Source: Nageia nagi (taxonomy: Eukaryota > Plantae > Pinophyta). Taken from it: a stretch of 64,000 nt of DNA. The position numbers were made by a program, and so were the translations under genes. The notes under the pieces are model-generated. The model was not told the DNA's origin. It ran no database searches and saw only the letters and a list, made by a program, of their open reading frames with translations. Below, piece after piece: positions 1 through 47,169 of this stretch (position 1 is its first letter; each line of letters begins with the position of its first letter). Location: assembly GCA_050084985.1 (NCBI GenBank), contig JBITNC010000001.1, positions 73,408,001 through 73,472,000 on the forward strand. The letters run 5' to 3'.

Positions 1-133
1 TTGCGCTTACCTCCCCAAGCTAGCCGACCACAATTTGAGCACCAAGTTTGCCTTGAAAGTTGCATCCATCCTCAACAGGCATGTATCTCTAGGTAGCTAG
101 CCAACTTGCCCTAGAAAAACCCTAGAAAATGCC

Positions 134-140
134 TATAAAA
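134..140 (+). promoter_or_regulatory. TATA box upstream of ORF A
   Basis: CCTATAAAA followed ~20 nt later by pyrimidine-rich TCATTTTCAC. The same arrangement occurs at 5665 in element B. Confidence 0.55.
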
Positions 141-283
141 GGGGGGAAGTTCATCTTCATTTTCACATCACAAGTGTGCTCTCTCCTCCCAAACTCGCTA
201 GGGCATTAAGGTGAGCGAATTCTTTCGATGTCTTTGAAGTGAGTCAAGAAAGCTTATCTTCTTCATTTGTTAAGGCGTTGGAG

Positions 284-806
284 GTAAGTCATCTTTGAGT
301 CTTATTTAGCATTTCATTTGAGTCATTCATGCCAAAAGACACACCCCTTTGCTAGGCGCATCCCTTCAAAGAGACACCATCCACCATACATGCTAGACTT
401 GCTTCATCACTCTCACACATACATGCATCCCTCTTAGGCGCATATATACCATGACACATGAATCCTATCTTCTCCAAAATTTGTGCCATACCCTCTCTCT
501 CTTAGGCGCAAGTTCCCCTTGAGACATGGAGCGAGTCCTCCTTGAGATGTGCGCCATGGTCTTCCGTTACATTTGCGCCATGATAATAATCCCTTCCCTC
601 ATACATACGTCGTGTCCAAAACCCAAGCGTGAGACCTCTGAGGCATGCAAATTAATTCTAGGGCCCCATCTTCTGCTTCGCTTGCCTCCCAAGAGCCTCA
701 TAGTCACCTTTGCACCTAGACGTTTCATCCAGGGACTCAAGCTTCAAGATCATACCCTTACCCTTGGCTTTAACTTTCTTAACTTATCCTGTTGGGTGAC
801 TTATAG
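284..806 (+). other. Putative 5'-leader intron of ORF A
   Basis: Donor GAG|GTAAGT at 284, branch-like CTTAAC at ~778, acceptor TTATAG| at 806, ATG at 818. Confidence 0.5.
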
Positions 807-817
807 GTAAATCATTC

Positions 818-2899
818 ATGGAGAAATTGCAACTTACCTCAGACAGTTGGGCAAGGAGTTTAAAGAATCTCATGAGACCTAGCGCACTTGAGCTGGAGAA
901 GTTTGGTGAGGATCCACTACCTATGGAGAACATAGCTCAAATTCCGAAAGAGAACCTACTCATTGACTTGATCTACCATTCCAAACTAGTCAAAGCAGCA
1001 ATGATACCATTTGTAGTCCCATTTCCAGAGTTGTGTTATGAGGTGGCAAAACAGTGTGATGTTGGATCAAGAAGTCTTTGTGATACCCAAGATGAGATCA
1101 TCATGAGATTCACTCCAGAAGGTGTAGAAGAAGCATTTAGATGGGAAGGAGATGGGATAGAGTGCATAGAAGAGGATTCCATATCATTCTATGAGTCGCT
1201 ATGAGGGCAAAGTAATCTAATTCGAGATAGGCTCCTTTCGAATGCAACAGAACTTAAAGGCAAAGAACAAATTTTCACCCCATTGTATTCAAGTTGATTA
1301 ACATATTGTCCAGAGTGATGGGGAAGGAAGATGACTTAAAGTTCAAGAAGGAGTTCTTCACATTCATATACCTCATAGGGCAAGGAAAGAAGATAAGATG
1401 AGGCAAGATGATTAGCAATGCCTTGGCAAATCAAATATCATCCATTGAAATAAACAAGAAATTTTACATGAATTCATACCTAGTCTACTTGCTCCTAGCT
1501 GGAAAAAACATAGTTATAGTGCATGGCAATGAGAAGTTATTGAAAAGGTTGGGTACCCCAATATGAAGATGTTATCTGAAATGGTGGATTGGAAGTAGAT
1601 ATGCCCATTACTATATGAAAAATGATGGGTGGGAGTACTATATACACAGAGTTCAAAGGAGAAGCACAAGTGAAGAGAATTTCAAATGCTACTATAGATG
1701 CTCTCAAAGGCCACATTGATTTTTATTTGCATAACTCAAACTATACATACATCAGATTGTATGGATCTCAGGAAGCTCCACACATGCTCCCTAAGCACGT
1801 CAACAACAAAATAATTTTGATGGAGTTTTGTACTCATTTTGTCATATTTGCATGATAATGTGTGGAGGAAGAACGCTGCCACAATGACTTTGCCTATCAC
1901 TGTCAGGGAATACACTTGTTCTCAGTGGGTTGATATTGAAACTATTAAAGTAGAGTTGATTGAGTATAGATTTAAAGAGCTTCCCATAGCTGAAAATTAT
2001 GACCCAGAAGGAAGAATACCAAAATTTATGGAGAATAATAAAAGACCACCTTATGAGCACAAATCTCTTGAATCAAAGGAGAGATTCAGGAATAAAACTC
2101 GCTTGGAAGATATCAAGAAAATACAAGCTGCCACAAATAAAGAAGAAAGGAGAGGAAACCAAAGACATGTGGAAGAAGAGAAAGGGAAAAGAATACAAGA
2201 GTCACCATCAGCTATACCAGTGGATCCAAAGATGGTGGAAGAATCCATCTCTTTGCTAAGAAGAAGACATGGACACATAGGACAATATGCCACCATGGGA
2301 ACATCAAGATAACCCATTCAGGATACTATGCATGCTATTGAGATGGAAATTGACAATTTGACACTAGTAGGGTATGCCCATCCATCCCAGGAATTGAATG
2401 GGATTGCTCATAATCAATGTGGTGGATTAAATAGAGAAGGACTTGCATGAGCAAGAGCTTCTAGGCCAAGTCCACAAGTGAAAAGGTAAGTCTTTCATAG
2501 AGTTCTAGCTCCAAGTATGGTCCTGAAAGCTCCCACAGAGATAGTGAATCTATTGGAGGATAGGGTGACCTTGAAGAGAATATGACTAGAGATAGCCATG
2601 AAGATATTGCAACAGGAGACACCGAAATGGAAGATGATTCTATGCAAGGAATCATTGCACTTGTGGGAAAATTCTCACAACCCACGCCTTCCTAGTCATC
2701 CTCACATAAAACCACAAAGAAGACTCCTACACCTCAGTTAAGAGGTGATACATCTCACCAAAAGAGATCTCCAAGAATGTTAAGGCAAGCACCTACTTCT
2801 AGAGTAGATGGTGTAAATGAAGAGGAAGGAGTACCAAATGATGAGCCACAAAAGAAGTTGACATAGGATATAAGAAAAGAGGTGGTTATTGTTACAGGT
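818..2899 (+). pseudogene. ORF A, 5' part: degenerate retroelement accessory protein of unknown function
   Basis: ORF-track pieces 818-1204, 1622-1855 and 1839-2312 are joined by stops and frameshifts. Contains the block IPKENLLIDLIYHSKLVKAAMIPFVVPFPELCYEVAKQ, then YMNSYLVYLLL and YTYIRLYGSQEAPHMLPK, then a charged low-complexity region. No gag/pol motifs. Confidence 0.65.
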
Positions 2900-3189
2900 T
2901 GTTGTGCCGCACAACACACCCCAAGATGCTACATTTTGAGGACTCTACTTTTTTTGAAGGCAATGGATGACATTGCCTGAAAATGACTAGACAACAATCA
3001 GAATGCAGAATCAGAGTGGCCAAGTGATGAAGTAGTGCACACAAGTACCCACAAAGGCACCAAGTTAGTTCAGTGCGTCCAGGGGCCATTCATGGCCTAG
3101 TTTCAAGCGACATCAAGCAGGATGCAATTTTGGATCACGGTAGCGACCAGGAAGGGAGTTTTACACCAAGTGGCCAACATAGCAGAAAA

Positions 3190-3830
3190 TGGCGCGTTTT
3201 TGTAACATTTGAGTGCAAGAGTGACAGAGTTGGCAAAAGGGCACGTTCTTGTAGAAATTGAGCTCACAGGTACTTAGCGCAACAGAAAGGTGCATTTTTG
3301 TAGAATTTGGGCGCTAAGGTACCCAAGGTGACAAAAATGAGTGTTTTTGTCAAGTTTGAGTCTAGGTGTCTTGAAAATGACAAGGATGACAAAAATGGAT
3401 GTTTTTGTCAAAGTTGACCCCGAAAAGTTGGAAAAGGACAAGGTAGAAAAGCGCGTTTTGGTCACTTTTGAGCCTGAAAATGGTCAGTATGGTAAAAAAG
3501 TGTGTTTTTGCACGATTTAAGTCCGGGAAGCTTGGAAATGACCAAAAGTGATGAGTTAAGCCCAGAATGGCCAGAAATGCTCGAAAATGCCGGAAATGCC
3601 AGAAAAGGTTGTTTTTTCACACTAAGGGCCCAAAAATGCTGAGAATGGGCAAGATTGGATACTTTGAGCCTAGAAGTGCTGGAAATGACAGAAAATAACA
3701 ACTTTTAGCCTAGAAAGCCAAAAATGATCGTTTTTGCACTATTTGAGCTCGAAAATTATTGAAAATGTATAGTTTGAGCTTGGAGGTGCCGTAAAGGGTG
3801 TTTTGATCGAGATTGAGCTAAGAAAAGCTA
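3190..3830. repeat. Degenerate ~50-58-bp tandem repeats
   Basis: Recurring GTTTTTG...TTTGAG...AAATGAC...AAAA units. Confidence 0.6.
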
Positions 3831-5600
3831 GGAGTGGACGAAAATGCATAGATTGAGTCCGGAATGGATCAAAAGTGGAAGATTGAGTGCCCTTAGCTTA
3901 AGGCATGTTTTTCCAAGTTACTGAAGATCCAAGTTAGGGGAAAATAGTGCTTGTTTCTCATAGATAAATACAAATAACATCGGAATTCGAGTCTAAGAGC
4001 ATATTTGGAGAGGTAAGATGAATTCTATCATGTTTAAGACTCGAAATTTCCAATTTTGAACAAGCCTAAGGCACTCTAAGCCTAGGTGTAGTTTTTCAAG
4101 CCTATGGGAAATCCATAGAAGTGCATTTTGGTGCCTAGGAAGTGGAGAAAAGGTAAAATGCATCAAAGATAAAATCTAAACGCATGAACAAGAGGAAATG
4201 ATGTTTCTAAGCCACATTAGGTCTCAAAATGTTTAGTTTTGGGCAAGTAAAGACCCCCAGAATGCTAGGCGCAAGTTTCTCTAGTTTTCCAATTCCAATG
4301 GAGTGAATAATGGCACCTAGAATGACAAGATCTAATGTTTTTTGACAAAAAATCAAGTTTAAGTGCTTGGGACCAAGGAAAACAAGATTATAAGCACATT
4401 TAGGTTTCAAAATTTTCGATTTTGAGCACATTTGGGCATCCTAAAGGCTAGGTGCAGGTTTTGAGAGCTGTGGAAATGCAATGGGATGAAATCTAGCGTC
4501 TAGAATCATAAAAATTTGAGAAATTTTGGTCAAAATTCAAGTTTGAAGGGTCTACAAGGTGTAAAACATGATTTCTAGCACATTTAGGTCTTGAAAATTT
4601 GGATTTTGAGCAAGTTTTGACCCTCCAAAGGCTAGGCACAGGTTTGCTAATGTTTCTAAATCCATAGAGGTGAGAAATGGCGCCTAACTTGGAGAGATAA
4701 GTGAAAAATGTATTAAAAATTCATCCCAAGGTGTCCATTAGGTGGAAAACCCCATTTTGAGCACATTTAGAACTAAAAAATTCCAATTTCGAGCAATAGA
4801 AAGGCACCTAAAGGCTAGGCGCAGGTTTTCATGCCATTGGAAATCCAATGGAGTGAAATCTAGCACCTAAGATGAAATTATTTTGCAAATTTTGTTCAAA
4901 ACTCAAATATGAAGGGTCCATTGGGTCAAAAACACCATTCCAAACACTTATTAACTTGCAAAATTTAGATTTTGAGCAATTTTAAGGCACCTAAAGGGCA
5001 GGCGCAGTTTTTCATGCCATTGGAAATCCAATGGAGTGAAATCTAGTGCCTAGGATGAAGAATTTTGTAAATTTTGCTCAAAATCCAAGTTTAAAGGGTC
5101 AATTGCAAGGAAAACATGATTTCTAGCACATTTAAACTTGCATTTTTTCGAAATTGAGCGAGGGAAGTGGCCCATAATCCTAGGCGCTGGTTTGCTAAAT
5201 TTTCTATTTCCATAGGAGTGAAAATTGGCACCTAACATAAGAAGTCAAAAATTTTGCAAAAATTCCATTTTTTTCACATGGTTGCATGGAAAAGGGCATT
5301 CTAAGCACATTTAAACTTACAAATTTTTGAAATTGAGCACTAGAAATGCTCCAAAAAGTCAGGCGCAAGTTTGCAAGCCATTGGAAACTTCAAAAAGATA
5401 AAAAATGGTGCCTAGATGCAAGGGGAAAGTCTCAAAATTCGATTTTTTGCACTTAATTGGGTGGAGAAGGAGAAAATAAGGATGTTTAAACTTTGAATTT
5501 TTCAATTTTGACCAAAGAATGTGCCCTCCAAAAATTAGGCGCTGATTTTCAAACCTATGGAGTGTTTGAAGGCTCCTAAACCTTAACAAACATGCAAAAT
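3830..5600. repeat. ~183-bp tandem array (~10 diverged copies)
   Basis: TAGG(C/T)GC anchor recurs at 4083, 4266, 4449, 4633, 4816, 4999, 5181, 5360 and 5536 (spacing 176-184 bp). Confidence 0.85.
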
Positions 5601-5664
5601 GCACCATTATAGCACTTTTTAGGTCAAAAATCCACTAAAGAGCATGCAAAAAGCACAAAAAACC

Positions 5665-5672
5665 TATAAATA
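5665..5672 (+). promoter_or_regulatory. TATA box upstream of ORF B
   Basis: CCTATAAATA followed by CTCTCATTTG, immediately downstream of the tandem array. Confidence 0.55.
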
Positions 5673-6421
5673 CCCCGAAGCCTCTCATTTGCTCCACAAC
5701 ACTCTCTTTGAGCCTCCATGCACCCATTTTTAACCAAAATCCTCACAAAACCTCACAAACTTGCTCAAAACTTGAAATTTGCTCACAAGATCTAAAATAA
5801 GCCCAAATCTTTTCAAAATTTCTCAAGAATCTTAGAATCTCATCCCCTATCCATCCATTAGGTCAAATCCACTTTTTTAAAATTTTCCAAATTTCGGACC
5901 CCCTATCTTTTGGCCATTTTCACCATTTTCAAGCTTTACGAAAAAACGTGAAAAAACAAAAAAATACTTTTTTGAGGCCAAAATCGTCCCAAATTTTGAA
6001 AGATCCAAACTTCGAAGTGAATACCAAAGTGATAGACTTCATATAGGAGAGCAGCCTCCATCATTCACTTCCCCAAAACAAAGCTTGAAAACCCACTTTG
6101 CATCCCCATCTTCGCAAGCTTCGAAGCTGCCAAAACCTGTCAAAAAACGAATACATGGGCTAAAAAAACAGCGAGTTAATTCGAACCTCGAAAAATCGAA
6201 ATGTTTCTTTGAGACTTGGCCACAAACCTCCTAGATTTATTTGCCAACACCCCATGTACTTGTTTCCCACTTTTAATGAACTTCAAAATTCTCAAAAATC
6301 CACAGCTTCTGAAAAACCCAAAAATAGGCCAAAAATTTGACTATCTTTTTCCCTCCAAAATCGCTTCAAAGATACCCAATATCACTCCTAATACCTTGTT
6401 GTGTTCCACAAGGCATAAACG

Positions 6422-8503
6422 ATGAGTATTGCTAAGAAAAACAAGGAACTCCAGATGGAAAGACGCATGAAGATCAGCCTGATCACCCTAGAAAAAGGAG
6501 GAAGAACTGCTTTCCCTACGGCCACATTAGTAGATGACCTTTGTTAGATCAGAGAAATAGATTGGGCATCCACTGATCCCGTAAAGTCATTAGAGAAGAT
6601 GTCCAAGATCCCATATGAACGGTTGCTCAACGACACACTTGCTCAATCCAGAATCGTTGAAGCTTGTATGATCCCATATACCGCTTCATTCCCAGAATTG
6701 TGCCTCGGAGTAGCCAGGATACATCCTTTGATAATCCTTAAAGGGAATTCCCCAGTTTCATATGTGCCTCTATCAATCTCACCTTCTGTGAGATTGACAC
6801 AAGGATAGTCTGCTCAATATGCTACACTCATTGTTCAACCAGGGCAAACCATTGACCAGACCATACGAGGATTATCACAAGAGATGAAAAGCACTAAAGA
6901 GACTAGTAGCACTTCGCACCTATACAAACACTTGAAGAAGCTGGTGGAAGTCCCTCCTAGAGGTCCATCCCGAGATGGACAATTATATCATTCTGGCCCT
7001 AGTTCTCCTCCACCTCCTCCTTCTAGTGATAACGAGGATGAATATGAGATTGACAAAGGAGACCTCTTAAGAGAACCCTTGGAAGTGGTCAAATATTAAA
7101 AATACCTTATATCTCAGACAATGAATCAGATTCATCAGTTGAGGAGATACCGACCATAGATCCTCCTACCATGGAAGAACCCGTACAAGCTACAAAACCT
7201 ACCTCTACACAGGCTTCCATACCTTGACAACTGAAGAAGACACCTCCACCTCAGAGAAAACTTCCACTGATTGCTTTAAGAAGGACCTCAGTGACCAAGG
7301 GAATAGCTTCCTTATCAGGAGGCGATGGAGGAAATGAGGAGGATGAAGGTGAAAATGAAGACCAGAGGAAAAAGAGGAGAGAGGATGAACGTCAAGGCAA
7401 TCCTAAGAGACAGGTGGCTACAGTTGCCAATCCTAAACTCGGTTACAATTTTGACGTGAAGGCACTCTTGAACAATTTGAGAGCATACCACCCATTTGAA
7501 GCCTGTGCTGACATTGTAACCGATCAAGATTCAGATACTGAACTTGAACATATAGCCACTTACGTCTCAATGAAGGATAACTCCATTGTCACCGATACTG
7601 TTGCTGCAGGAAGGAAAAGAAATGCCAGTGGGGAATTTGCATTAATGGTGAAAGCAAGAGAGGAGCTGTGTAAAAAGATAGGCACTCTGGGTAGGCAACA
7701 TGCAATCGTCACCAATGTTGCGGCGTTGACAGAGGAGAACACATCACAAAAGGTAGAGCTCAGGGAGCTTAAAAGAGAATTGGCTAGATTGAAAAGGTTG
7801 ACCGTTGATATATGAGTTGCTAACCTAACAGTTGAAGACATCAGGAAGCTGATTTCCTTGAATATTGGGATTCAAGTGGTCAAAGAAGAGTGGGTAAGAG
7901 AAACCAAAGAAACCATCCAAGAGTTATTCCTAGGAATAACTAATTTCTTTATCGAGGAAGATGGATCATTCGTCGTACAAGACATGATCCATGAACTATT
8001 TGCTAGGTGGGGCAACAATTATCAAGTGATGCATGAACTAAGAAGAAAGACTACTGGCATGCCAACACTACTGGAATATTGTCATCAATTCTTTTACCAG
8101 TATGATTGGCTATTCTACACTATTCAAGTTCGGGCAAATTTTAAGGTAGATATGAGGAAACAGCTAACAGAATACCAGTTTGATCTAAGACTGATTGAGT
8201 AAGATGGATGCAGCAGAGATTACGCTACAGTAATAGATGAGGTCTAGTTGATGATTACCACTTACCTCGAGACTAAAGATATCAATGTTCTCAAATCTGG
8301 CAAGTAGCTCAAATATGGCAGCGACATGGCTATGGTGTAGCGAGATGAAGAGGACTTCAAAAACCATCATTGCATATCTATTGGCCAATGAAGGTATAAT
8401 GGAAATTCTCAACATCGGAGTCAAGAACAGAGAAACCTTCATGGGCGCGGACTTAAAGGCCACCATCGCATCACATGTACACACCGCAAATCAGCCACCA
8501 TAG
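6422..8503 (+). pseudogene. ORF B: degenerate paralog of ORF A
   Basis: ATG 6422 is in frame with 6599-6808. MSKIPYERLLNDTLAQSRIVEACMIPYTASFPELCLGVARI aligns with the ORF A block. It continues through Pro/acidic-rich and coiled-coil-like pieces (6884-7099, 7291-7815, 7858-8202, 8285-8503). Confidence 0.7.
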
Positions 8504-8701
8504 TTTGTAGTCATTTTGAAAATTTTGTAATTAGTCAGCCTAGAAAGTTGAGCACCAAAACTCGACTAACCTTGCTCTCATGATCAATTAGCCTAGCTAG
8601 TAGAGCACCAAAAGTCAGCTGACTTAGTTGTAGGAGGCAAATATGTAATATTTTAATATTTTTTATAGAATTAGGGCAACACTTGGGAACCCTAGAAATT
8701 C

Positions 8702-8709
8702 TATAAATA
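8702..8709 (+). promoter_or_regulatory. Second (canonical LTR-type) TATA box of element B
   Basis: TATAAATAGACCCTAG, with context conserved in element A at 19061. Confidence 0.6.
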
Positions 8710-9673
8710 GACCCTAGGGGGTTACTTTTATGTAAGAATGAAAGTTTGGAACTTTTTCAAAGAGTGAAAATTTTGAGAAAAAGTTCAAAGTTTTTGTAAA
8801 AGGAGAAAATTGTGGAAACTTTTCTGTAACTCTTTTGCAAATCTAATACAAAGTGGTTACATATTTTTTCAAGAGAATTGTCATGTATGGAGTGGTGGTT
8901 TCATTTGTGGCTTTCTTTCACAATTCAAATATTTTCGCTTCTTTCCTTGAAAACTCAAGAGTTTTAAGAAAAAATAGTTGTTCAAACTTTTAAAAAATAT
9001 CTTGAATTGCTCTAAGTTTGCAATCTTTTGCCTCTTGCACATTTAAACAATTCTGAAGTTGTTTCTTTTCTACATCTTATTGGATGTTTTGTTCAAACTT
9101 AGTTCCAAAGTGTGCGTTCTATGTTGTTTCCTTTGATTGTATTGGTCCCGTCTACGGAATACCGACAATCGGCCTTGCTTCTTGCTCTAGATTCAAAGCT
9201 GATTGGACAATAATCATTCACTTTGAACTAGATTGAATGAACCGAAACTTCATAACCGATTAGAAAACGTTTCATTTTACACAATGCTTTGTTGTGACAA
9301 TCGCCTTGTGACTTAACCAATATTGGATCATTCTCACTCTTTTTCTGTTTTTATTTGCTTATTTTATCTTTCCTGCATTCTTTTTTTTTATAAAACCAGA
9401 GCAACTTTCAATCATCACAAAAATACCTTGTCACTATAAAAAATGTGAGTTAACAGTCTCTACCTCTATCCAAACCAGTTGAGTTCATTCTCTTGATCAT
9501 CATGTATATAAAATTGTGCAACTTCAATGGGAACATGAACAAACCTTGGGGTTTCAGTCCTTTCAAGAGGAGGTAAGTTACACTATCTCACCTAAATGCT
9601 AGGTGCTTTCCTCGTCCCAATCGTGTGCAAGCGATCATAGGCCTGTAGAAAAGTTTTCCATCCCAACATAGGT

Positions 9674-9819
9674 CATCCTAGAGAAAAGATGATGTAGAGA
9701 AAGACTACGATTTTCTTGATACATATCCTGAGCACTTGGAAACACAAAGAATGGAAGAAAGTGATGTAGTGATGAAGAATATGAGAGAGAAGTTCCAGAA
9801 GAAGGAGAATGTTCACAAC
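9674..9819 (+). pseudogene. ORF A middle segment between the two insertions
   Basis: Reads KDDVEKDYDFLDTYPEHLETQRMEESDVVMKNMREKFQKKENVHN and continues in frame at 17778 as HEIFKLFLNEWYLYCY. Confidence 0.7.
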
Positions 9820-10319
9820 TATTGGAATGTATAATGCATTATTGTAAAGGTTTGTATTAATTCTTTTTGTAGGTTCACTAATACTTAAGGGTATCATTAG
9901 ATACCTTAAGTATTTAAGTGAATATGATAATGTAACTTGTCCTACACTCCATGTCATGAGCATGCCCTTTGTGTAAAAGGATGTGCATGTCATGCTTTTG
10001 TGCATTGGGTAAAAAGGTGATCCAAAAAGGGATTTTGGCCTATAAATAGAAGGCTTTCTCTTTGTTATCAGACACCAATTTGTGAAGTAAAATTATGCTA
10101 TAGGATAGTGCTTAGGAGTTAAGATTAGGAGGATTGTAAGAGAGTTGTATTTGTGATTGAAGTAAAGATCTAGTTAGTGGAGGTACTCCTAGTTGGAGGA
10201 ACCGCATACATTTTGTGTTGTGTTGTGAGATTGCTTTGTGAGTTTGTTAGATGTGAATTGTGAGCTTTCATGTGATCTTGGGAGTTTAGAATTGTTCATG
10301 TTATAGTTCAATTCTCTCA
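9820..10319 (+). repeat. Copia 5' LTR
   Basis: TA(from TG)...CA. About 29 substitutions and no indels versus the 3' LTR by manual count. TATA at ~10041. Confidence 0.95.
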
Positions 10320-10321
10320 TA

Positions 10322-10333
10322 TGGTATCAAAGC
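10322..10333 (+). promoter_or_regulatory. Primer-binding site, tRNA-iMet
   Basis: TGGTATCAAAGC matches TGGTATCAGAGC at 11/12 positions, 2 nt after the LTR end. Confidence 0.9.
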
Positions 10334-10613
10334 TATTTGGAGGCTCCTCTTCACATCCTTGGTGTGGAGGCTCTTCATCTTCAGCTTGGAGGTCCTCATT
10401 CTTTATCCTTCACTTCCATTGTGAGGTAAAAGTGATTCATGGTATAATCTTACTTCACTTTATCTTGGATTACTAACATATTTTGTGTTATGTTAGCCTT
10501 TGTTTATGACAAAATTTGTTTAAAGTAACAATATATGTTGATACATATTTTTATACTAACATGTTTTATTGTTAGTTGCAATTTTTTTTTTTAAATTGCT
10601 CTGTGAAACCATT

Positions 10614-10945
10614 ACCATCAACCTCCTCTCACCGCTTGCGGCTCCGCATTCGTGTGGCTGGTGGCCATCAACCTCCTCTGAAGTTGCTTGTATTGATGAT
10701 GAAACCCTGTGAATTCTACTGCTCTTCTTTTTTACAAAAAACTTGAATGTGTGTGAGAATTTGGGGTTTATGACGAATGGTGGCAGAACTGGGTGTTTTG
10801 CCTGACCAGGTAGAGGGGAAGCTATAAATGGCAGCGCCATGGGAGCAAGACTCAGAGACCTCCTGCTGAAATGAGATGTCCATCTCCCTCCTTGCAATAA
10901 GGCGCACCATAACCGCATGTTCTTAGTGACCATCAACCTCCTCTC
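10614..10945 (-). other. Probable captured host-gene fragment in the copia leader
   Basis: GC-richer island. The minus-strand ORF reads like a plastid transit peptide. Bracketed by the 17-bp direct repeat ACCATCAACCTCCTCTC. Confidence 0.45.
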
Positions 10946-12645
10946 TACATTTCTTTTGGGTCTCCTTCGTCGAACCCTACGCCTCGTCCTTTTTTTTTTT
11001 CACGCACGACCACCCACTATCTTTACTATTTTGTTGATTATTGTTGCTCAATCTAGTCTCAATTTTTTTAGCCTCCACACACACTTTTTTTCTTCTTTAG
11101 TTGGTGAGCATTTAATATTTTGTGATTACTTGTAAGCCACTTACACCTAGTAGCTAACGCATATTCTCTTCTTTGGTAGGCATTTAATTTTCTTTGCTTG
11201 CTTACAAGTCACTTCTTCCTATTTAATGCACTTAGAAGCCTTATACTCTACATTTAAAGTATTATCATAGTGAGTTTACTTACCTTACTTTAGAGTATGT
11301 TGTTGGTCACAAATTCATCATTACCCTTTTGAAGGCATTTAATTTCTTTTCTTTGCTTGCAAGCCACTTCATTTACACTTCAAAAATGATTTTTTAAATG
11401 AGGTATTTTTTTAGTACGCTTTTAAGTAAAAAGATTTTTTTTTTTTTACAAATTGTTGGCCAATATACATTATTTTTTATATAACTATGAAATTTTCTTT
11501 AAGTGATAATCAAATTATTAAGGATTAAATTATTTTAAGTTAAAGGGGGAGATATTTGTGAATGTCTTTACTTAAATTTCTTTTTAGATCCTTTATGATT
11601 AAAATACATTTTTATCATTTAGAAACTTTTTAATGCATATTTATTACTTAGAAATTTTTAATGTTGCATGCTAAGGACTTAAATCTTTTAAGATGATGCA
11701 TGCTTAGTACTTAAATTTTATGCATGCTTAATACTTATTTGTTAAGTTAATGCATGTTTATGCTTAAATTTCTTAAGTTAATGCTTAATACTTAAAAGTT
11801 GAAAGCATGCTTAGTACTTATGTTTAGTATTTAATTTTTTTATGATGCATTTGATGATTCCTTAATTTTTTACTTCCTTAAGCAAAGTATGGAATGGACT
11901 TGTGCAAATAAGGAATGATGTAAAGATGTCCTTTAGGGGTTAGTAAACAAAACTCATTGGACTCTTAGGTTCCAAGTTATGAATGGATGTTTTATTTATG
12001 CTTTTTTACTTCATGTTTCGTATTTTGATTTATTTGCTTATGCAAACAAAAACGCAAACATTGAAATAAACAACCTCTTAAAATGAACACATCCGCACGT
12101 ACATTCCGCAACATGACTTGTTTGGAGAGCCATGAGGTGAGGACAGGTGGATTGGACATAACTCCAATAGGTGGACATGCATGTGTGTAGTGATGCCACA
12201 TGTCTGCATGTCCATTCAAGGATTATCTTGATAACCTAGGAGGACAACTTGAAATCTAATCAAAATTAATAATTTGGCTGATCCAATAAACGTCATAACC
12301 TTGGAAAATAGTAGGTACTCCTTGTGAGAAAATATGATACTAACCAAAGCGAACTGGTTGAGGATTGGTAGTACTTGGGCTCCTCTTGTGTAGGCATCCA
12401 GGTGAAGATCTAATTTTAGACAAGAAAACAAACTTCAACAATGTCATTCTTCATCTATGGTTCTTGAGATGAGAAATGTATTTGGGTACATGGATTATTA
12501 TTGTAAAACATTTGCACTTGTGAATCAAATCAAACATGTGTCTAGTTTTAAATTTAACATGTATTATTTACTTGGTTAAAACTTAACATATAATGTTGTT
12601 TTTTGAACCACATGCTTATTACTTTTTTACATCCTTGTGTAGCAA

Positions 12646-15600
12646 ATGGGAGACTCCTTTTTACCTGAACACATTCTTGATGGTTCCAACTTTGGTATTT
12701 GGAAACCTCGGATGAGAGCTGAATTACAGGCAAGGAAGCTTTGGCAAACAATAAATGAGAACCTTGTACCTCCTACAGATGAGAAGGCACTAGAGGCTTA
12801 CAACACAAAGAATAAGTTGGCAACCTCCATGATCTTCTGTGCAGTTTCAGATGATGTGCTCCTAATGATTTCCTCTTCAACCTCGGCAAAGGAAGCTTAT
12901 GATAAGCTTAAGCAAATCTACCTTGGTTCAAATTTTTTAAGAAGGTTTACCATTCTTCAAAAGTTGCTTTAATCTCGTCAAGGGGAAGATGAAAATGTTG
13001 CCATCTACTTGAACAAAATCATTGACCTAAAGACCCAACTTGTTACTTGTGGGTGCAATTGGATCAATGATGAGTTCATGGTCTTCATCATTCTGCAAAG
13101 TTTGGAAACTTTGTAACGATTATAGAAACAAGGCTTGATGATGAAGAAGAAGTCTTCTCCCTTGAAAACCTTTCTAGGCACCTTTTGAAGCATGAAGAAA
13201 CCCTTAACAATAAAGTGTTGATTTCTTCTCCTAAAGATAATAACGTTGCTCTTGGAGCAACCAAAACTCCTTTCAAGAAGAACTTCAACCATCAAAAGAA
13301 ATTTTATCCTTTTTCCTCCAAGAGGTTTGAGAAAAGAGATAATGGCAACAATAGGAACTATATCAACAGCCGGAACAAAGGCAACAACAACCACTTCAAG
13401 CAAAGAAATGGAAAAAGTAAAGCAAACAATCCATATCCTAAGGAAAAGTTTGATGGTAATTGTAACTATTATGGCATCCAAGGTCACAAAGAAGTTGATT
13501 GCTATAAAAAGAAAAGAGAGGAAAAGAACAAAGGCAATATTAATGTAAAGAACTTCAAAGGAAAGAAGAATATTCAAGCTGGTTTTGTTGCGGCATTCTA
13601 CTCCTTGTCTCGCACTTTTTCATCTAATTGGATTGTTGACCCTGGTTGCACTAATCACCTATGCTTTGAAAGCGCTAAGTTTAAGAACTTTCACAAGTAT
13701 AGAAAAGATGCAGTTGTGATAGGTGATAACTCTACCTTTGAAGTCCAAGGAATTAGAAGTGTATTGATTCACGGGAAGGTTTTTGACAATGTGCTCTATG
13801 TTCTTAAGCTTAGGATGAACATTCTCTTCGTGATCCAAGTTGCTAAAAAAAGGTACTCATTTGAGTTCGACTCAATCTTTGTGCATTAAGAAAAGGACTT
13901 GCCATGTTGGTTAAAGGATCAGTGAAAGATGATCTTTACATTGTGGATCAAATTCCATCAAAGATGTGTCTCACTACAAGTGTGTGTTCTAAAAGCAATC
14001 TTTGGCATCAACGTTTAGGGCACCTTAACCACAAGAGTATACAAGTCATGAAAGATCGAGAATTTTTGGAAGGTGCCTTCAATTACTCTTTCGATTAGTC
14101 TATGTGAGAAGTGCATTTTTGGCAAGATGCATAGGCAAAAGTTTGAAAAAGATAAGGCAATAAGAGCATCTTAACCTTTTCAACTTGTGCATTTAGATTT
14201 GATGGGTCCGTTTCAGACTAAGTTGCTTGGAGGAGCATTTTACGTCTTGACCTTCATTGATAACTTTAGTAGGATGACCTTTGGGTATCTACTTGAACAT
14301 AAGGATCAAACCTTTGAGAGTTTTAAGGTTTTTAAGGCTTTTGTTGAGAATCAAACTAACCTTAAAATCAAAATATTGAAATCAGATAATGGAGAAGAAT
14401 ATAACAGCAATGAGTTCAATAACTATTGTGTTAAGTATGGAATCAAGAGGCAAGTTACGATTCTTTACACTCCTCAGCAAAATGGTGTTATCGAAAGGAA
14501 AAACAGAACAATTATAGAAATGGCTAGATGCATGTTGGGTAATCTTCCTAGTTTCTTGTGGGGTGAAGCTATGAGCATTGCTATTTACACTTTGAATAGG
14601 TGTCCCACAAAAGCTGTTCAGAGTAAAACTCCTTTTGAAGCATGGTCAAGAAGAAAACCTAACATTTCTCACCTTAAGGTGTTTGGTTGTGAAGCATTCT
14701 CCTACATTGTTTCCTAGAAAAAAAAAAGTTGAACAAAAGAGCTGAAAAATGCATCTTTGTAGGTCATGACAGTCAGCATAGAGGCTACAGGCTCTACTTT
14801 TCATCCTATAAAGCCGTGTTTGTTTCAAGGGATGAAAAATTCAATGAACTTCTTTAAGACTTTGCTTCTAATGAGGATGTTGATGATCCAAAAGACTCTT
14901 TAGTTGCACTTAGTTGGTTAGATATTGATGTAAACAAGTCACCTTAGGAGCAAAATTCTCCAACACAAAGAGTAACAAGGAGCATGAACTTGAACATATC
15001 CTTAGTTGCCAAGTTTGACAACAAGCATGAGCCCTCAACCTTCAAAGAAGCTTCAAAGCACGAGTGTTGGATGGAAGCCATGAAAGTGGAGTATGAGCCT
15101 CTTATGAAAATAAAACTTGGGATTTGATTCCTTATCCCAATGAGAAAAATGTGATTGACAATAAGCGGATCTACAAGGTCAAGTTCAATTCTGTTGGAGA
15201 TATTGAGAAATACAAGGCAAGGTTAGTAGCCAAAGGTTTTGCTCAGAACTACGGTGTAGATTATGAGGAAACCTTTGCTCCCATGGCAAAGATGCCTACT
15301 GTGAGAATTATCCTTACTCTTTCTGCAGCTCAAGGATGGAAAATTTTTCAACTTGACATCAAGAATGCATTTCTCAATGGTGACTTAGATGTGGAAATCT
15401 TCATGAATCAACCAGAAGGGTTTATTGTGGAAGGCAAAGAATTCTTTGTGTGCAAGATAAAGAAGTTATTGTATGGACTTAAACAAGCACCTAGAGCCTG
15501 GTACAAAAAGATTTCTGGGTCTTTGCAAACATTGGTTTCTCCAAGTATTTTTTTGACTCCGATCTATATGTGCTCAATTAGGGAAAAGACATGGTCTTGA

Positions 15601-16550
15601 TTCTCCTTTATGTGGATGATCTTTTGATTATTGGAAACAATGATGAAATCATTTAAGAGTGCATATCCAAACTTAAAGCAACGTTTGAAATGATTGATCT
15701 TGGTCTTTTGCACTACTACCTTGGAATGCAAGTATACCAATATAAGGATTGTACTTATCTTAGTCAATTTAAGTATATATTAGACATTTTGCAGAAGTTT
15801 GGAATGGAAGAATGTAGATATACTGCAATCCCAGTCTCTCATGGAATCACTGTTTCACTGAACTTCAACTCTTAATTAGCTGATGCTACAGCTTATAGGC
15901 AATTAATTGGTAGTCTTTTGTATTTGACTATTTCCAAGTCAGATATTGCCTTTGTAGTGAATCTGATGGCACGATTCATGCAGAAACCATATGTTGAGCA
16001 TCTCAATGCTATTAAGCAAATCTTGAGGTATGTTGTAGGGACTAAGGATCTTGCTCTCAAGTATTCTAAGTTGCCCTTGTTTGTTTCTCTCTGGATTCTC
16101 AGATTTTGACTATGGGGGAGATAGAGATGATAGGAAATCAACTTCTGCGTATGTGTTTAGCATTGGTTCAGGTGCTATCTCTTGGACTTTTAAGAAGCAG
16201 CCTACTGTTTCTTTTTCCACCACAAAAGCGAGTACCATGACATGTCTGTTGCAGCTCAGGAAGCTATTTGGCTTAGGCATCTTTTGAAAGAAACTGGATA
16301 TTAGCAGGCTGGCTTATCTTTGATTTCTTCAGACAATTAGTCGGCTATTTCTTTGGCTAAGAATCCTGTGTTCCATCAAAAACTAAAACATGTGGAAATC
16401 CATGCCCATTTTATCAGGGAGAAGGTTTTTGATAACATCATACACCTGGAGTATTGTCCATCCATCTTAAACTCCGTTGATTTGTTCAGCAAGCCCCTCT
16501 TGGAAGCTTAGTTCTGTAAGCTTAGGGATGCTATCGAGTTGGTGAAGTTG
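12646..16550 (+). pseudogene. Copia gag-pol polyprotein, disrupted by stops and frameshifts
   Basis: Gag LDGSNFGIWK; zinc knuckle CNYYGIQGHKEVDC; protease WIVDPGCTNH; LWHQRLGH; integrase HLDLMGP/SDNGEEY/TPQQNGVIERKNRT; RT YKARLVAKG/LYGLKQAPRAW/YVDD; RNase [17 protein letters not shown]. Confidence 0.95.
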
Positions 16551-17264
16551 CACTCAAGGGGGAGTGAAGTTCGAATTCTTATGTTGAATTCATGTTTGTG
16601 ATGACAACTTCACCTCTAGGAGGATTTTGTGTTGTATAGTGTTGATTTTGTTGTACACCTTCGTGGTAAGTTTGCTCTGCATGAGGAACTTGTTGTACAA
16701 AATTTTAAAAAAGAAAAAGATTGGCCAATCTAACACTGTTCAGTTATCCATATGTGAGGAACTCTTATGTGTCTTTTGGCATTGTTCAGTTATTCATATG
16801 TGAGGAACTCGTATGTGCATGCTTTATTTTGTAATGATAATCAACACATGTTTTATATATAGTAGGAGACTATGAGTTTTTGGCATGGCATCTTTGTGAT
16901 GAATTATAGTGCACCATTAATTAGTTTATGATGGCATTTGTGTGATTCATCTATCCTTGTTGATATGAATATGTTGTATCTAACTGATCTTGTTATTTGA
17001 ACTACTTATCACCTGCAGGTTATTTACTTTGGGTATGCAGACTCTTGGAGACTCTTCATGACTTCCAGTTGGATGACTACTTCATGTACATTGAAACCGG
17101 TTGTGGTTAATGATTGTATTTGGCAAAGTAGTGAGTCTCAAATTAGATCTTTCTTACTTCACAAATATGTAAAAAGTTCTCATCTCCGTTGTATCTGTTT
17201 GGAGGAGAATTCTCTTACTTTCTCTCTTCCTTCTCTCTTATTCACTCTATCCCAATATTGCATT

Positions 17265-17272
17265 AAGGGGAG
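17265..17272 (+). promoter_or_regulatory. Copia polypurine tract
   Basis: AAGGGGAG directly before the TG of the 3' LTR. Confidence 0.9.
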
Positions 17273-17772
17273 TGTTGGAATGTATAATGCATTATTGTAA
17301 AGGTTTGTATTAATCCTCTTTGTAGGTTCACTAATACTTAAGGGTATCATTAGATACCTTAAGTATTTAAGTGAATATGATAATGTAATTTGTCCTACAC
17401 TTTAAGTCATAAGCATGCCCCTTGGGTGAAAGGATGTGCATGTCATGCTTTTGTACATTGGGTAAAAGGGTGATCCAAAGATGGATTTTGGCCTATAAAT
17501 AGAAGGCTCCCTCTTTGTTATTAGACACCAATTTGTGGAGTAAAGTTATGCTATAGAATAGTTCCTAGGAGTTAAGATTAGGAGGATTGTAAGAGAGTTG
17601 TATTTGTGATTGAAGTAAAAATCTAGTTAGTGGATGTACTCCTAGTTGGAGGAACCACTTACATCTTGTGTTGTGTTGTGAGATTGCTTTGTGAGTTTGT
17701 TAGATGTGAATTGTGAGCTTTCATGTGATCTTGGGAGTTTAGAGTTGTTCATGTTATAGTTCAATTCTCTCA
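17273..17772 (+). repeat. Copia 3' LTR
   Basis: TGTTGG...CTCTCA, a direct repeat of 9820-10319. Confidence 0.95.
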
Positions 17773-17777
17773 ACAAC

Positions 17778-18745
17778 CACGAGATTTTCAAACTTTTTTT
17801 GAATGAATGGTACCTCTATTGTTATTAGTAAGGCAACTACTGACAAGAGAAGGCCATAAAGTGGTTAGGATTGGAGAATTCAAATGAGGAGATTGAAGTT
17901 GGACCGATTCGCCTAGAAGGACATGAGTATAATATTAATGCTAATGCCTTTTCTTTGAGACAAGAAGGGACAAAGAAAGATCAAGAAATCTAGAAGTTGA
18001 AAAAAGAACTAGTTGTCAAGAATAAGTTTTGCAAAGAAATTGAAGCGGCACACATGCAATCGGATGACATCAAAAGGTAGGCTTGTCTAAACATGGGAAT
18101 GGAAGCCATGAAAGACGAATTAAAAAAGACCATTATGGAAGCTTTCAAGGACTTATCTTTTTATAAATCGCAAGCTCTATAGAAGAAGAGGCAAAGGTCT
18201 AGGCAATGAATGATAAACTGTTCCAACTATTTGAGATATGGAACCTATACTAGGATGACATAAATGAGTTGCATTGGAAGTTAGAAGACAAGCCAATGCA
18301 GCAGGAGTATTGCATGATTTTTGGGTATTATTTTGATTGGTTGAAGTATTCAATGAACAAATGCCAAGTCTTGGTCAAGAATATGACAAAAGAAAAAGAA
18401 GAGGTTAAGGCACTAATGGGTGATTTTCAATATGGTGTCACCTTCTTAGACGACTTTGGAGTACCAAGGAGAGAAGACTTAGTATCAAAAGAGGTCCAAC
18501 ACATGATCAACAACATGCTTTACATGCAGGATGTTAACATGCTCAAGATTGGGGGTCCCTTCAAAGATGAAAGAGAATTATTAGCATGGAAGTACCAAAT
18601 GAAACAAGTTTCAGCCAGGATTGCAAAGCAAAATAGAAAGAATCGAAAAGCCTTTGATATACTTGATGTGGGTCTAGAGAAGAAGGAAGCATTCATGGGA
18701 GATCACTTTGAAGAAGATGTTACACTTTTGTTGAGATTGCTTTGA
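17778..18745 (+). pseudogene. ORF A, 3' part (charged/coiled-coil-like C-terminus)
   Basis: Frame continuity across the copia TSD. ORF-track piece 18269-18745 ends just before a T-rich 3' region and the second TATA. Confidence 0.65.
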
Positions 18746-19060
18746 GTTTTTCACATACCGGAGGCCGTATTTTATTTGATTTTCAAACTTTGATATTTCT
18801 CACCTTGTGATGGATGAGGTTTTACTCTCAAGTGTGAATGAGACTTTTTATTTTTGGCTATTTTCAGTGCATTTCATTTCATTTTGCCGCCATTTAATTT
18901 GCATTTTCATTTCATTTTCAACAGTATTTGGGCATAATTTAGTTTAATTTCATTAGAATTTTGATTTTAATAATAATTTATGTGAATTTCACCAAGTTTG
19001 AGGTGAATTTTCATATAGTTTTAGGTGAATTAGGGCAACAACCATTAGGGTTTTGAATGT

Positions 19061-19068
19061 TATAAATA
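19061..19068 (+). promoter_or_regulatory. Second (canonical LTR-type) TATA box of element A
   Basis: TATAAATAACCCTAG preceded by TTAGGGCAACA, as in B. Confidence 0.6.
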
Positions 19069-20761
19069 ACCCTAGAGGGCTCATTTGTGGGAGGATGAAA
19101 ATTTTTTGCAAGAGGAGAGCTATTTTGTTGCAAGATTTAAAAGACTTTTTGTAAAACTTTGACATAATCTATTTGGAATTGCTATTGTTTTCATTGAATG
19201 GAATTGTGAGTTTGAGCTATATGCTTGATGTCTACTTGTGATGCTATTGATGCTTATTAGTATTTCCTTTTAAAATTGTTGGAGTTTTTAAGGAAATAAC
19301 ATTGAATATCATATGAAGTGTTGACATTGTTACTTGGTTAGACATTACTCATAGTTTGCATGCAAACTTATGCATTTTGGCTTGTTCTCTTTATGTCCTT
19401 TAATTTGAGGACAACATTCACAGTGTTTTGATCTATCTCATTCTACATCATTTTTCCAATTGCACTTCGCTTTGAGCTCCCTTCTACATGCCATTTGTGT
19501 TGTTTGCTGTAGGAGTGGATAAGTGAATGTTGAAATCCTAACAAACCCAAAGAGAAAGGCATCCAAACCCTACTAAGTTGGTGGAGAGAATATAGCTAAG
19601 AGCTGAATGCAAGTGCCCTCGTCATCCTTATACTTTGCTTTGTTTTCACTTTCTTTGTTTTACACTTTCTTTCAAACGCCAAGGAACACCTCTAAACGAA
19701 ATGCAAAGATAACTCCATGTCCTTTTAGAAACAAATTTTGTTTTGGGTGACAGTTAGTACCTCCACCATTTTTTGAGACCTATTCCAAGTCCTTTTTCTT
19801 GTTACAAGTCAAGCATTTCATGGTCTACCCCGTAGACTATTCATTTTAGGATGAGAACCTTGGGGTATTAGTCCTTTCAAGTGGGGGAGAGGAACACCTT
19901 GTCACCTAAGGTGTTTGGATGATCTTCAATTTTATCTCTTTAGCCATATGTTGGGCTAGGAAAGAAAAACATACGAACAGAATGTAGCTTTAGCATTTCT
20001 CAAATTGTGACAAGCGGTTAGAAGTACAGACAATCTTATCATATGCATCCTCAAAGTTTCTTCATTATAACTTCTAATGTTTCAATCCATATGGATTTTA
20101 CTAATTTAATTTGGCCATACGTTTTTGAATGGAGTGTAGTATTTATCGAAGTTCCAAAATTGCTCTACAATCTTTTGTCTTTATTGGAGACAATTAATTT
20201 TAGCAACTCAATGCTAACCCATACAAATTGCTGTACAATCTTTTATATTTTGGCAACTCAAAGTGAACCCATATATTAGTGAAAGTATGCAAGCTTCTTC
20301 CTGACCAAAAATACTCTTCTTGGATAATATGGATTCACACATATTGCTTATCTGTTCATCTGCAATAAACATGGAACTATATACTTGTGTCTCAAAGACA
20401 TCTGACAAAATTCATGGATATGTTTTCCATAGGTTGGTGGGAATAGTGTTGTGCAATTCATTCAAACTTCCTATTTCTTGGCTTGCTTGTATTACACATA
20501 ATTACAAGAATGGATGATCTGCAAAGTTTAAGACATCTAAGAATGTTTTGTTGATTAAGCTTAATCCCTAAAAAAATATTGCCCTTACGTTTCCATGCTT
20601 TTTTGGTCAGAGTGCTCATACCTTGACAAGTTGTTTACTTAAAAATGGACTGAAAAATGCGAGTTTCCGATTGCAGCCTTTGTGGTCTGAAATTTGAATC
20701 GCCTGTGTTTCAGAAATACATGAACATGAGTGATGTGAAACATTCATTGATTGATCCCCTT

Positions 20762-34310: not shown

Positions 34311-36199
34311 ATTTGAGGACATTAATAAATTTTATTTTTTCTTATCATCTGTACTAACATTATTGGTTTCAATGCAACATTAATGCCATCTCTTTATTTC
34401 ACTTTGCTCAAGGATATTTGATGCCCTTATTTTGAAGCTGCAAGCTATATGACCTTTGCCTTCGATAGGGTTGAAACTTGAGACTTACAATTATAAGAAG
34501 ACACTCCAAGTCCTGAGCTAAATCAAGGCTGCTAAGTGCAAATGACTAGACCCGCATCTTTCCTAGATTTTGTGAGTTTTTACAGCTCTTGTTAATCCAA
34601 TGAATCTATCTGAGTTTCTACGAAGAAAACAAGAGAACAGAAAATAATATATATGTATAGGTACATTTCTCCATTTTGCTCATAATGTGTATGATAAGTT
34701 TGGGTAGTTTGGTATGTTATTGATGCTAATTTGTTGATGAATTTATGTAACATTTCTTTTGTTGAATTTGTTAAATTTTAAATGTTCGTCTAGTTTAATA
34801 TGTCAAAACTAGCTGATTCTTTGTCAATTTTTTGCCGAATGGGAGTCTTAACACTATGGTTACCAGTTACCTCAATAGTTCCATTGAATATAACCCCTCT
34901 TAATTCAGCTGATTCTTTTTTTGTTAATTTTGACTTCTGCAGTAAGGGAGGATTCAACAACCACTCTCAACTCTCTAGAAAGTCATCATCATTGATGCTT
35001 GAAATACCTAGTTAATGAAGCATTTGGCTATTAAATCTTCCTAGGTTTTCAGTGGAATCTTGCTTACTTCATATCCATTTTTTCATTATCTTCTTGTATC
35101 TTATTTCTCGTGTATCTTTGTCAGATGTAAGAGTGAATGACATTCCTGAGGATTATTTTGTGGAAATCGAAGCTTTTTGCATCATGGATAGATTCAAATA
35201 TACTTAATTTAAATTGTATTCATGATGGAGATGATCCGTGGATGAATGCCTTTCCGTTGATTGTTCATAAACTATTAGTACCTCTTCAAAAAACAGTGAA
35301 ATGTTGGGAAAACTATTCCATTTTTACTTCTAGCCTTTTAAACAAAAAAAAAAAAAAAAAGAAAGAAGAAAGAGATTTCCTCAACTCTGCACTTTTAGTT
35401 CAGCATTCTTCTTTGCATCTATTGTTGGCGAAATGTTTGTGGCCAGTAAAATCACAATAGCACCAGTTATCATAAAGTTATGTTGGAAAGAGGGACATTG
35501 GAGCTCATATCCAGTGAACAGCTTATTTACGTTTTTATTTTCTTTCAATGATATTAACCCAACAACAGAAAATAGAGTGCCTTGCATGATATATATTTAA
35601 GTATGCAAATATTCATCCCCCGAAGAGCACTGTTTAGTTTTCTTGAAAGCAACTGCATGTGGGTAATTGTTCTGTTATTGGCTGCATGTAGTACAAACTT
35701 GAAATCATCTTTATGTAATCATTGTTTAAATTTTAACACAAAAATAATACACGAATTCCCTTTTAAGAGGACATGTTTTTAGGATATGGCACCTACAATA
35801 TTTATTTTAGTTGGATATAAGTCTTTATTGATGCTTCAGTGATCAAAATTGAAATCTATAAGGATTTTTGTGCATATTCCTAATTTCCTACTGATTGTAG
35901 TTTTGGCAAATGAGCTACAGGTATGATTTTTTCAATTATTAACCGGAGAAAATGAGAGGAAAGCATTATCACATGCTGAACTAAAAATGTAAAATACTGG
36001 CTCTTGTCATTAGGTAGCTGCTCATGCTTCTGTGTAATTTATTAGGGAATATTACTTTTACTGTGACTGTGAACTTGGGTAGATGGGGCTTTCCGGTAAT
36101 GCTTCATTTTTGAAATTTCTCAACTAAGCTCTGCCATTGGACATTGTTAGTGAAAACCTTATAATTGCATGATGTATCTATGAGAACGGATGTATGCAG

Positions 36200-36376
36200 G
36201 CCAGAACTATGTCCAGAGAAAAGGATGTTGTTCTACCCAAATCTTCCGAAGATCATTGGTTCTGATTTTCTGGAGCCCTGGTTGAGGAATATACATGGAC
36301 CAAATGGAAACCCAACAGCTTGCCATGTTTTTGGACATACTCATTTCTGCTGGGACTCTGTATTGGATGGGATCAG
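36200..36376 (+). CDS. Metallophosphoesterase gene, penultimate coding exon
   Basis: GCAG| acceptor and |GTAG donor. Encodes PELCPEKRMLFYPNLPKIIGSDFLEPWLRNIHG...CHVFGHTHFCWDSVLDGI(R), including the GHxH metal-binding motif. Confidence 0.93.
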
Positions 36377-36471
36377 GTAGCATGTTAGTTGTATTTAGTC
36401 TATGAAATGATAATTATATATTTTAATTTTTATATAATATCAAATCTATTGCTTTATTTATCCATCTGCAG

Positions 36472-36691
36472 ATATATCCAAGCACCTTTGGCATATCCCC
36501 GTGAAAGAAAAAAAAGAATGAATGGAGGTGAAGCATGGCTACCATTTTGCATATATGACTCTGACAATGGAGGCTTATATAGTAAATTGTTACCCTCCTA
36601 CTGGTCTGAGTACTATCGAATGGAAGAAAGAGAGCCACAGAACACAGAACTTGCTCCATGGGTTGCCAGATTCTATAATAGGACCAAGTGA
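36472..36691 (+). CDS. Metallophosphoesterase gene, last coding exon
   Basis: Follows a 95-bp AT-rich intron with CTGCAG| acceptor. Encodes YIQAPLAYPRERKKRMNGGEAWLPFCIY...ELAPWVARFYNRTK*. Confidence 0.93.
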
Positions 36692-41237: not shown

Positions 41238-41963
41238 TATAGTTTACCTGTGAGGACAAATAGAGGTGATATTCAGATGAAAGGGGACTAATGACAAGCC
41301 TCTCCAAAAAACAAAGCCCAATATCTGACCTCAACCTAGCGTCGCTGCTAGGAACCCAACGACATCACTTGGCTACTTTACCAATTTAGCCTTGCCCTTT
41401 GCTTGATGTCATCATCTTGCCTTCAATGCTTAAAATACCACTCATAGATGAGTAAAAGATAGCAGGAATGCAAATATCAGAGTATAACAATTTCTAGAAA
41501 TGATAGGTGGTGTTAAGAAACACTAATCAATAATGACACAAGTAATCCCACCAATCAAGGATTTAGGATTGTGTTAGATCATGTCTCATCTATGATCATG
41601 CACACCTTTCCACCTTTATAGGTAACAAGTAAATTAGAAAGGCTCCTCCTTGGGCTTATTATGATGTCGATCAACTTGTTACCATAAAACATAAAGGTAG
41701 ATGAGACTACACATTGATAAAGATATTTATTTAATAAATCAAATAAATCATTTCAAATAACTAAAAAGGGTATTTTGATTAAATTAAACTCCTTTTTAAG
41801 TGTTAATAGATGCCCTAGTTTGAATATATTTTGAGCTTTTGGAACAAAAAAGGTCAAAGCATAATTCAAAGTATAATATAGAAAAAAAAGTAAGAGTAAG
41901 AAAATACTGTCTGAAAAGTTATCTCATGGCAACAATTTCAGATGCCCCAACATTTTGCCTATA
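41238..41963 (-). repeat. Probable 3' LTR of the minus-strand Tat/Ogre-type element
   Basis: Directly follows the minus-strand PPT AAGAGGGGGCA (41967-41977). Termini TATAG...CTATA (decayed TGTAG...CTACA). Minus-strand TATA at ~41617. Confidence 0.55.
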
Positions 41964-42204
41964 TTATGCCCCCTCTTTGACTTGGTTGCAACATGATGGA
42001 CCTCTCATCATAGGAGCAATCCAAGGCAAAGAACAAAGAACTTGAGAAGAACTTAGACAAGAAATGTTTTTGTACGAGATATCTCAAATATAAACATTAA
42101 CATTATGATATGAATAATGTGATAAGTTTTATAGATGCAAACCTATCCTTGGTGACTTACCCACTAAGATTGATGAAAAAAGATTACCAATTTATGCTAA
42201 TAAG

Positions 42205-42378
42205 CTTGGTTTCCCAATCCACCATGTTGCCATGGATTTTTGAAAAGAATGACCCTTCCTTACAAAGGATTCAAATGATAAGAGTGACCAACTTGGTTTC
42301 CCCAAGCCACCATGTTTCCATGGATTTTTGATATGGATGACCCTTTCTTACAAAGGCATCAAATGATATAATTGACAA
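42205..42378. repeat. 2 x 87-bp tandem repeat in the 3' UTR of the gypsy element
   Basis: CTTGGTTTCCC...TTACAAAGG starts at 42205 and 42292. Confidence 0.85.
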
Positions 42379-47155: not shown

Positions 47156-47169
47156 TGGTGAACCCAACA
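47156..47169 (+). promoter_or_regulatory. Primer-binding site, probably tRNA-Trp (copy at 54846)
   Basis: TGGTGAACCCAACA versus the complement of the plant tRNA-Trp 3' end as recalled (TGGTGAACCCGACG); the differences fit CpG decay. Confidence 0.65.

Follow-up and report, generated by a model that had tools for sequence, protein, structure and literature searches.

To our knowledge, what the extra open reading frames (ORFs) of plant retrotransposons do is a long-standing open question. The accessible text of the papers describing them places these ORFs in the internal region of the element (PMC7264820, PMC11963269, PMC4408406). In the portions available to us, the REXdb survey reports long terminal repeats (LTRs) of up to about 5 kb, its searches extending only to LTRs of 6 kb and to a distance of 20 kb between LTRs (PMC6317226), and solo LTRs are given as one per 4-7.5 complete elements in Pinaceae (PMC5751070) and as 2.8 per intact element in Cupressus (10.64898/2026.07.23.736688). 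No protein gene inside a plant LTR is reported in the literature searched, which lay mostly outside subscription journals and included the accessible part of PMC13477047. Here we describe a 6.8-kb insertion, named unit B (2900 to 9668, plus strand), in a 64-kb stretch of contig JBITNC010000001.1 (hereafter the window, to which all positions refer). We interpret it, with a probability of roughly 60%, as an insertion of integrase type belonging to a highly repeated family of plant elements. It would likely be the solo LTR of a Ty3/gypsy retrotransposon (Tat/Athila-like) from a gymnosperm, in which an LTR of about 8 kb carried a gene for a protein with a predicted PMD/VANC-like fold; this accessory gene would likely lie inside the LTR.

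Unit B starts with TGTTG at 2900, ends with CAACA at 9668 and is bordered by CAGGT on the left (2895 to 2899) and TAGGT on the right (9669 to 9673), both read on the plus strand. This target-site duplication (TSD) agrees at four of its five positions, a resemblance only moderately unlikely by chance alone (about 0.02); the ORF of the surrounding element, host element A, stays in frame across the insertion site (VVIVTG before it, HPREKM after it). The termini and TSD proposed in the sequence-only reading of this locus are borne out, with the in-frame host ORF as additional backing. The absence of a primer-binding site (PBS), polypurine tract (PPT), gag and pol, claimed in the same reading, also held: no PPT precedes 2900 and no PBS follows 9668 in the window sequence, the sole PBS-like match inside unit B is a poor one at 4000, and when three translated stretches spanning the ORF of unit B were compared with Pfam, neither gag nor pol families were recognised.

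Parts of unit B are contained in ten sequencing runs from ten studies, each matching under one fifth of its words. Contigs of four of these runs were compared with positions 2700 to 9900, all 30 bins of which they covered; their summed depth served for the boundary step and bin coverage only, and was taken neither as a copy number nor for a comparison of the ORF with its flanks. Within 2800-3130, depth was 0-5 in the host flank and 700-20,800 at 2908-2943 in four of four runs, a step that identifies 2900 as a terminus joined to many different flanking sequences. The 5' terminus (TGTTG..., 2900 to 2943, plus strand) is common to many independent insertions, and the loose ends of contigs at this point finish in a TGTTGT-like family start, yet are unlike between runs (agreement of 0.58-0.95 in seven rows, among 24 of 120 rows). 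No PPT consensus is visible before 2900 among the loose ends of these 24 rows; this absence would be expected, as the overlap of a PPT-junction contig with the reference would be too short for placement. A single listed contig, matching 9451-9668 and continuing for a further 95 nt, bears on the 3' end, so that the recurrence of the termini in other copies is upheld for the 5' end in all four runs and for the 3' end by this contig only. Unit B presents features of a solo LTR: TG...CA ends, a 4-5-bp TSD, no PBS, PPT, gag or pol attached, and termini found in other copies. Coverage of the first ~45 bp (2908-2943) is several times that of the adjoining internal sequence, which suggests that several subfamilies share the terminus.

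A metagenome scan retrieved two related loci, L001 and L002, from 248 pattern matches, and scans of viral contigs and genome contigs returned nothing. Both loci end short of the two termini of unit B, and no pairing of units around PBS-gag-pol-PPT was seen in them. L002 is colinear with 3594-8162 at 78-80% identity and has the same order of arrays, TATA box, acceptor-like site and ORF, the latter open over 758 codons and then broken. L001 contains two rearranged copies with larger deletions, one of which connects both the beginning and the end of the ORF with the tail, and shares with unit B the succession of ORF end, TATA box and 3' tail over 8470-9361. Between these two deleted copies lies a fragment of a different LTR-like sequence (L001 1157-1860, minus strand), ending CCCCAACA.

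The non-coding layout announced in the sequence-only reading, with tandem arrays, TATA boxes at 5665 and 8702 and an acceptor-like site ahead of the ORF, is present on the plus strand of unit B. A degenerate array of 49-58-bp units occupies 3186 to 3480, with looser copies continuing to about 3850, and is followed by a 183-bp array from 4044 to 5553 (7.4 copies to 5393 by TRF, then a further partial unit to ~5550). The 183-bp units hold the CpG motif TAGGCGC or decayed forms of it, often twice per unit in inverted orientation. This motif, which was chosen post hoc, occurs eight times in the window for 0.59 expected, always in unit B or host A, and 16 times in the L002 array; as in VANC-type systems, the tandem repeats in the non-coding part of the element contain many copies of a short motif. 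TATA box 1 (5665 to 5672) is conserved in L002 and is likely the promoter of the accessory gene. The acceptor-like site just 5' of the ATG (6395 to 6413) reads TCCACAG in two of two relatives and TCCACAAG in unit B, in whose leader no canonical splice donor was found. Downstream of the ORF, a weak PPT-like purine run followed by TGTAA (8632 to 8648), compared by eye with the PPT of a Tat element at ~41975, may be what remains of an earlier LTR start. TATA box 2 (8702 to 8709), conserved in L001 and host A, likely represents the promoter of the genomic RNA, and its surroundings have no detectable homology with those of TATA box 1 (score 67, shuffle maximum 75). The R/U5-like tail (8710 to 9668) has a donor-like GGAGGTAAG at 9569 and terminates in CAACA, shares 89% identity with L001 up to 9361 and resembles the tail of host A.

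The ORF itself (6422 to 8503, plus strand) had been described as open over ~2.1 kb, which is not the case: it is a broken copy of an accessory ORF estimated at ~1,090 codons when intact. The longest stop-free frame listed in this interval is 195 aa, internal stops interrupt the reading path at 6545, 6806, 7225, 7813, 8200, 8245, 8305 and 8338, and the frame changes near 7090 and 8350-8390. Comparison with L002, which retains 1.18 kb near ~6710 that unit B has lost, shows that an internal deletion of ~1.18 kb has its junction in a brief stretch of microhomology (6707 to 6714, plus strand), and a loose end of run X2 at 6709 matches L002 sequence absent from unit B. With the deleted segment, the intact unit would measure about 7.95 kb. 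The broken state of the gene, the ~8-kb length of the intact unit and the predicted PMD/VANC-like fold had all escaped the sequence-only reading. The comparison of dN/dS (nonsynonymous to synonymous substitution rates) among ORF copies that it recommended gave 0.25 (0.19-0.32) for unit B and L002 over 480 codons and values below 0.5 in all six pairwise segments tested, and was saturated between host A and L002. As methylation inflates transitions, transversions were also considered alone; they amount to 0.083 at 4-fold and 0.028 at 0-fold sites (p=0.0017). These values indicate that the ORF was under purifying selection and that the gene was once functional.

The product of the ORF is predicted to have a PMD/VANC-like N-terminal domain, mostly deleted in unit B, followed by a Pro/Ser/acidic linker and a C-terminal part that is likely a coiled coil. 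At E<=0.001, 187 relatives match the N-terminal 481 residues, including one of 1,010 aa with the same general organisation; P0156 (838 aa), whose first 553 residues are identical to those of P0003, was not treated as an independent sequence. Relatives are encoded on contigs of 14.5, 17 and 23 kb, and no longer homolog was found among 3,347 candidates. One of the 20 relative proteins looked up bore an organism name, that of a hypothetical protein of Taxus chinensis; this name is the basis for calling the family gymnosperm, and a conifer origin is likely. No Pfam family matched the ORF pieces of unit B or host A at the curated threshold, the PF10536 and PF09331 profiles of the PMD/DUF1985 (VANC) domain matched neither the L002 protein nor 30 relatives, and both were absent among the best 25 of 41 families listed for 95 alignment members. 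Foldseek gave no match at E<=0.001 in PDB and BFVD, 9LNK not being among the matches listed, PDB sequence searches gave no meaningful match, and Atlas gave no usable match for the L002 protein. An env-like protein was rejected by a rough test, in which four sequences had no hydrophobic segment (maximum 19-residue hydropathy of 0.93-1.48).

Host element A, into which unit B is inserted, has the same promoter-ORF-promoter plan. Its left part (133 to 2899, plus strand) includes a TATA box (133), a donor-like site (284), three TAGGCGC motifs, an acceptor-like site (~806) and a homologous broken ORF from 818; a middle piece of this ORF lies at 9674 to 9819 (plus strand), and the right part (17778 to 19912, plus strand) contains the ORF end (to 18745), a TATA box (19061) and a tail similar to that of unit B (score 261, shuffle maximum 162). 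Without its two insertions, the ORF spans 3,196 nt from 818 to 18745. The encoded protein is 35-54% identical to the N-terminal part of L002 and 28-31% to the C-terminal part of unit B; host A is a distant relative of unit B, with a ~40%-identical protein. Host A occupies window positions 1-19980; its 3' end may be near 19972-19980, with no PBS after it, and its 5' end is outside the window. The second insertion in its ORF, 146 bp from unit B, is a full-length decayed Copia element (9820-17772) with gag, integrase and reverse transcriptase recognised by Pfam, a TSD of ACAAC and 500-bp LTRs that are 5.8% apart.

If unit B is a solo LTR, its organisation could be explained as follows. Because TATA box 2 would start the genomic RNA, all that lies upstream of it (arrays, TATA box 1 and ORF) would belong to U3, and TATA box 1 would drive a subgenomic mRNA ending in R. 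Such an LTR would likely have grown once plus strands were primed from a PPT farther upstream, which brought a 3' extra ORF, its promoter and the arrays into U3; the former PPT may be represented by the purine run at 8632. Recombination between the two LTRs of the element would then have left unit B, which later decayed. Its protein would likely act in the nucleus, where binding to the CpG motif of the arrays would protect the LTRs of the family from silencing, much as VANC protects VANDAL transposons; even granted this architecture, we hold such an anti-silencing function to be somewhat less probable than its absence. That gymnosperms harbour a whole lineage whose ~8-kb LTR unites a VANC-like anti-silencing gene and the tandem motifs that it targets, in two copies per element, each solo LTR being a self-contained module, is a tentative and rather doubtful extension. 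An accessory gene located in U3 and surviving in the solo LTR had already been proposed in the sequence-only reading; the 5' end, the shared layout, the plan of host A and the signature of selection support it, while the gene is broken in unit B and no paired units around PBS-gag-pol-PPT were seen.

The claim that the termini have no internal repeat stood in self-BLAST of the window, where neither terminus has a second copy, and 2900-3900 has no BLAST match with 8560-9668 at E<=1e-5, but the two segments aligned with a score of 74 (maximum of 68 in 60 shuffles), a weak signal that qualifies it. The family could instead have ordinary short LTRs, built from the two ends of unit B, and an internal PMD-like extra ORF, as in TatIII, Ogre and Athila; unit B would then be deleted, non-autonomous or recombinant, with the outer half of each LTR retained. 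The placement of extra ORFs and tandem arrays in the accessible descriptions of such elements (PMC4408406, PMC11963269, PMC7264820), the deletions common in the family (1.18 kb in unit B, larger ones in L001) and the PPT-like run at 8632 together with two LTR-type TATA boxes all agree with this. It nevertheless requires two deletions that eliminate the inner half of each LTR together with PBS and PPT; the colinear plan common to L002, L001 and host A, the absence of a PBS between TATA box 1 and the ATG of unit B, and the lack of any joint corresponding to a short-LTR shortcut among the 15 joints listed out of 108 make it unlikely.

The ~8-kb unit could also be the whole mobile element, non-autonomous, with integrase-type ends and no paired LTRs, using the integrase of another element and carrying its own regulator only. 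Two such units nested in one window, a 5' end with many different flanks, and the lack of any observed PPT, PBS or pol adjoining the unit would be accounted for in this way. Retroviral-type reverse transcription requires R at both ends, which is not found here, the inverted terminal match of unit B is just 5 bp, and PPT-junction contigs would, as mentioned, be expected to go unplaced; we regard this explanation as quite improbable. Finally, the mismatch in the TSD and the broken ORF of unit B would suit a patchwork of fragments with partly fortuitous ends and TSD and a functionless decayed ORF. The family-wide 5' end, the in-frame host ORF and the colinear relatives with 758 open codons and a dN/dS of 0.25 have already largely refuted this very improbable possibility. 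Unit B is a real, family-level feature, whose gene is broken in this copy.

Elsewhere in the window, a Tat-type pol fragment on the minus strand (41930-45170) encodes an RNase H, a second RNase H-like domain and an integrase, with a PPT-like GAGGGGGCATAA ~750 bp later; this pol (42735-45110) belongs to a separate element, not linked to unit B. Large tandem duplications extend over 45113-59139 (45113-49085 with 52799-56779, 96%; 50512-52799 with 56776-59139, 94%). Two exon-like stretches at 36189-36691 read as the end of a host gene, presumably of a calcineurin-like phosphoesterase, for which Pfam gave no match.

If the solo-LTR interpretation is true, an ORF located in the LTR would survive solo-LTR formation, the main route of element removal. 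The more doubtful lineage with an anti-silencing gene in both LTRs of each element would go undetected by LTR finders with a 6-kb limit and could help explain the continued spread of such families in heavily methylated giant genomes. A VANC-like fold beside a repeated CpG motif would offer a direct test of whether extra ORFs act as anti-silencing factors. An abundant family with ~8-kb LTRs would escape the REXdb survey because, according to the accessible text, LTRs were limited there to 6 kb and their distance to 20 kb (PMC6317226), and its omission would affect gymnosperm repeat annotation, solo-to-intact ratios and gene counts.

As far as the accessible parts of the sources go, the Tat-clade elements with extra ORFs (TatIII and Ogre, i.e. 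TatIV/V; PMC4408406, PMC6317226) resemble unit B by a large ORF with a PMD-like globular domain then a likely coiled coil, by tandem arrays, by a 5-bp TSD and by a gymnosperm relative. Their ORFs precede gag or follow pol, with an antisense orientation in TatIII, whereas that of unit B is between the termini and sense to both TATA boxes; unit B also differs by the lack of a Pfam PMD match and by the ~8 kb of the intact unit, exceeding the reported LTRs of up to about 5 kb. TatII, a gymnosperm lineage, has sense extra ORFs 5' (23%) and 3' (26%) of the polyprotein in supplement 5 of REXdb, a table whose columns may be shifted, as the Athila row looks to be; this pattern might fit LTR-borne ORFs and is only a lead, as the available text does not place these ORFs in LTRs (PMC6317226). 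VANC of the VANDAL (Mutator-like) DNA transposons (PMC5735166, PDB 9LNK) is the best structural match to the predicted N-terminal domain and, in the text available, likewise combines a conserved domain with a variable low-complexity region and a short motif multiplied in the non-coding tandem repeats of its own element. Cassandra LTRs, in the description available to us, hold a captured 5S rDNA inside the terminal repeat, which is thus duplicated at both ends. Among retroviruses, MMTV (mouse mammary tumour virus) sag and nef are genes encoded in the U3 of the LTR. These genes and the Cassandra 5S rDNA are small, whereas about 3.3 kb of coding sequence, a promoter and arrays would make up the repeat here. 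An LTR-borne gene of this kind would be unlike the known extra ORFs, described internally, and the unit likely represents a new arrangement of a known kind of element.
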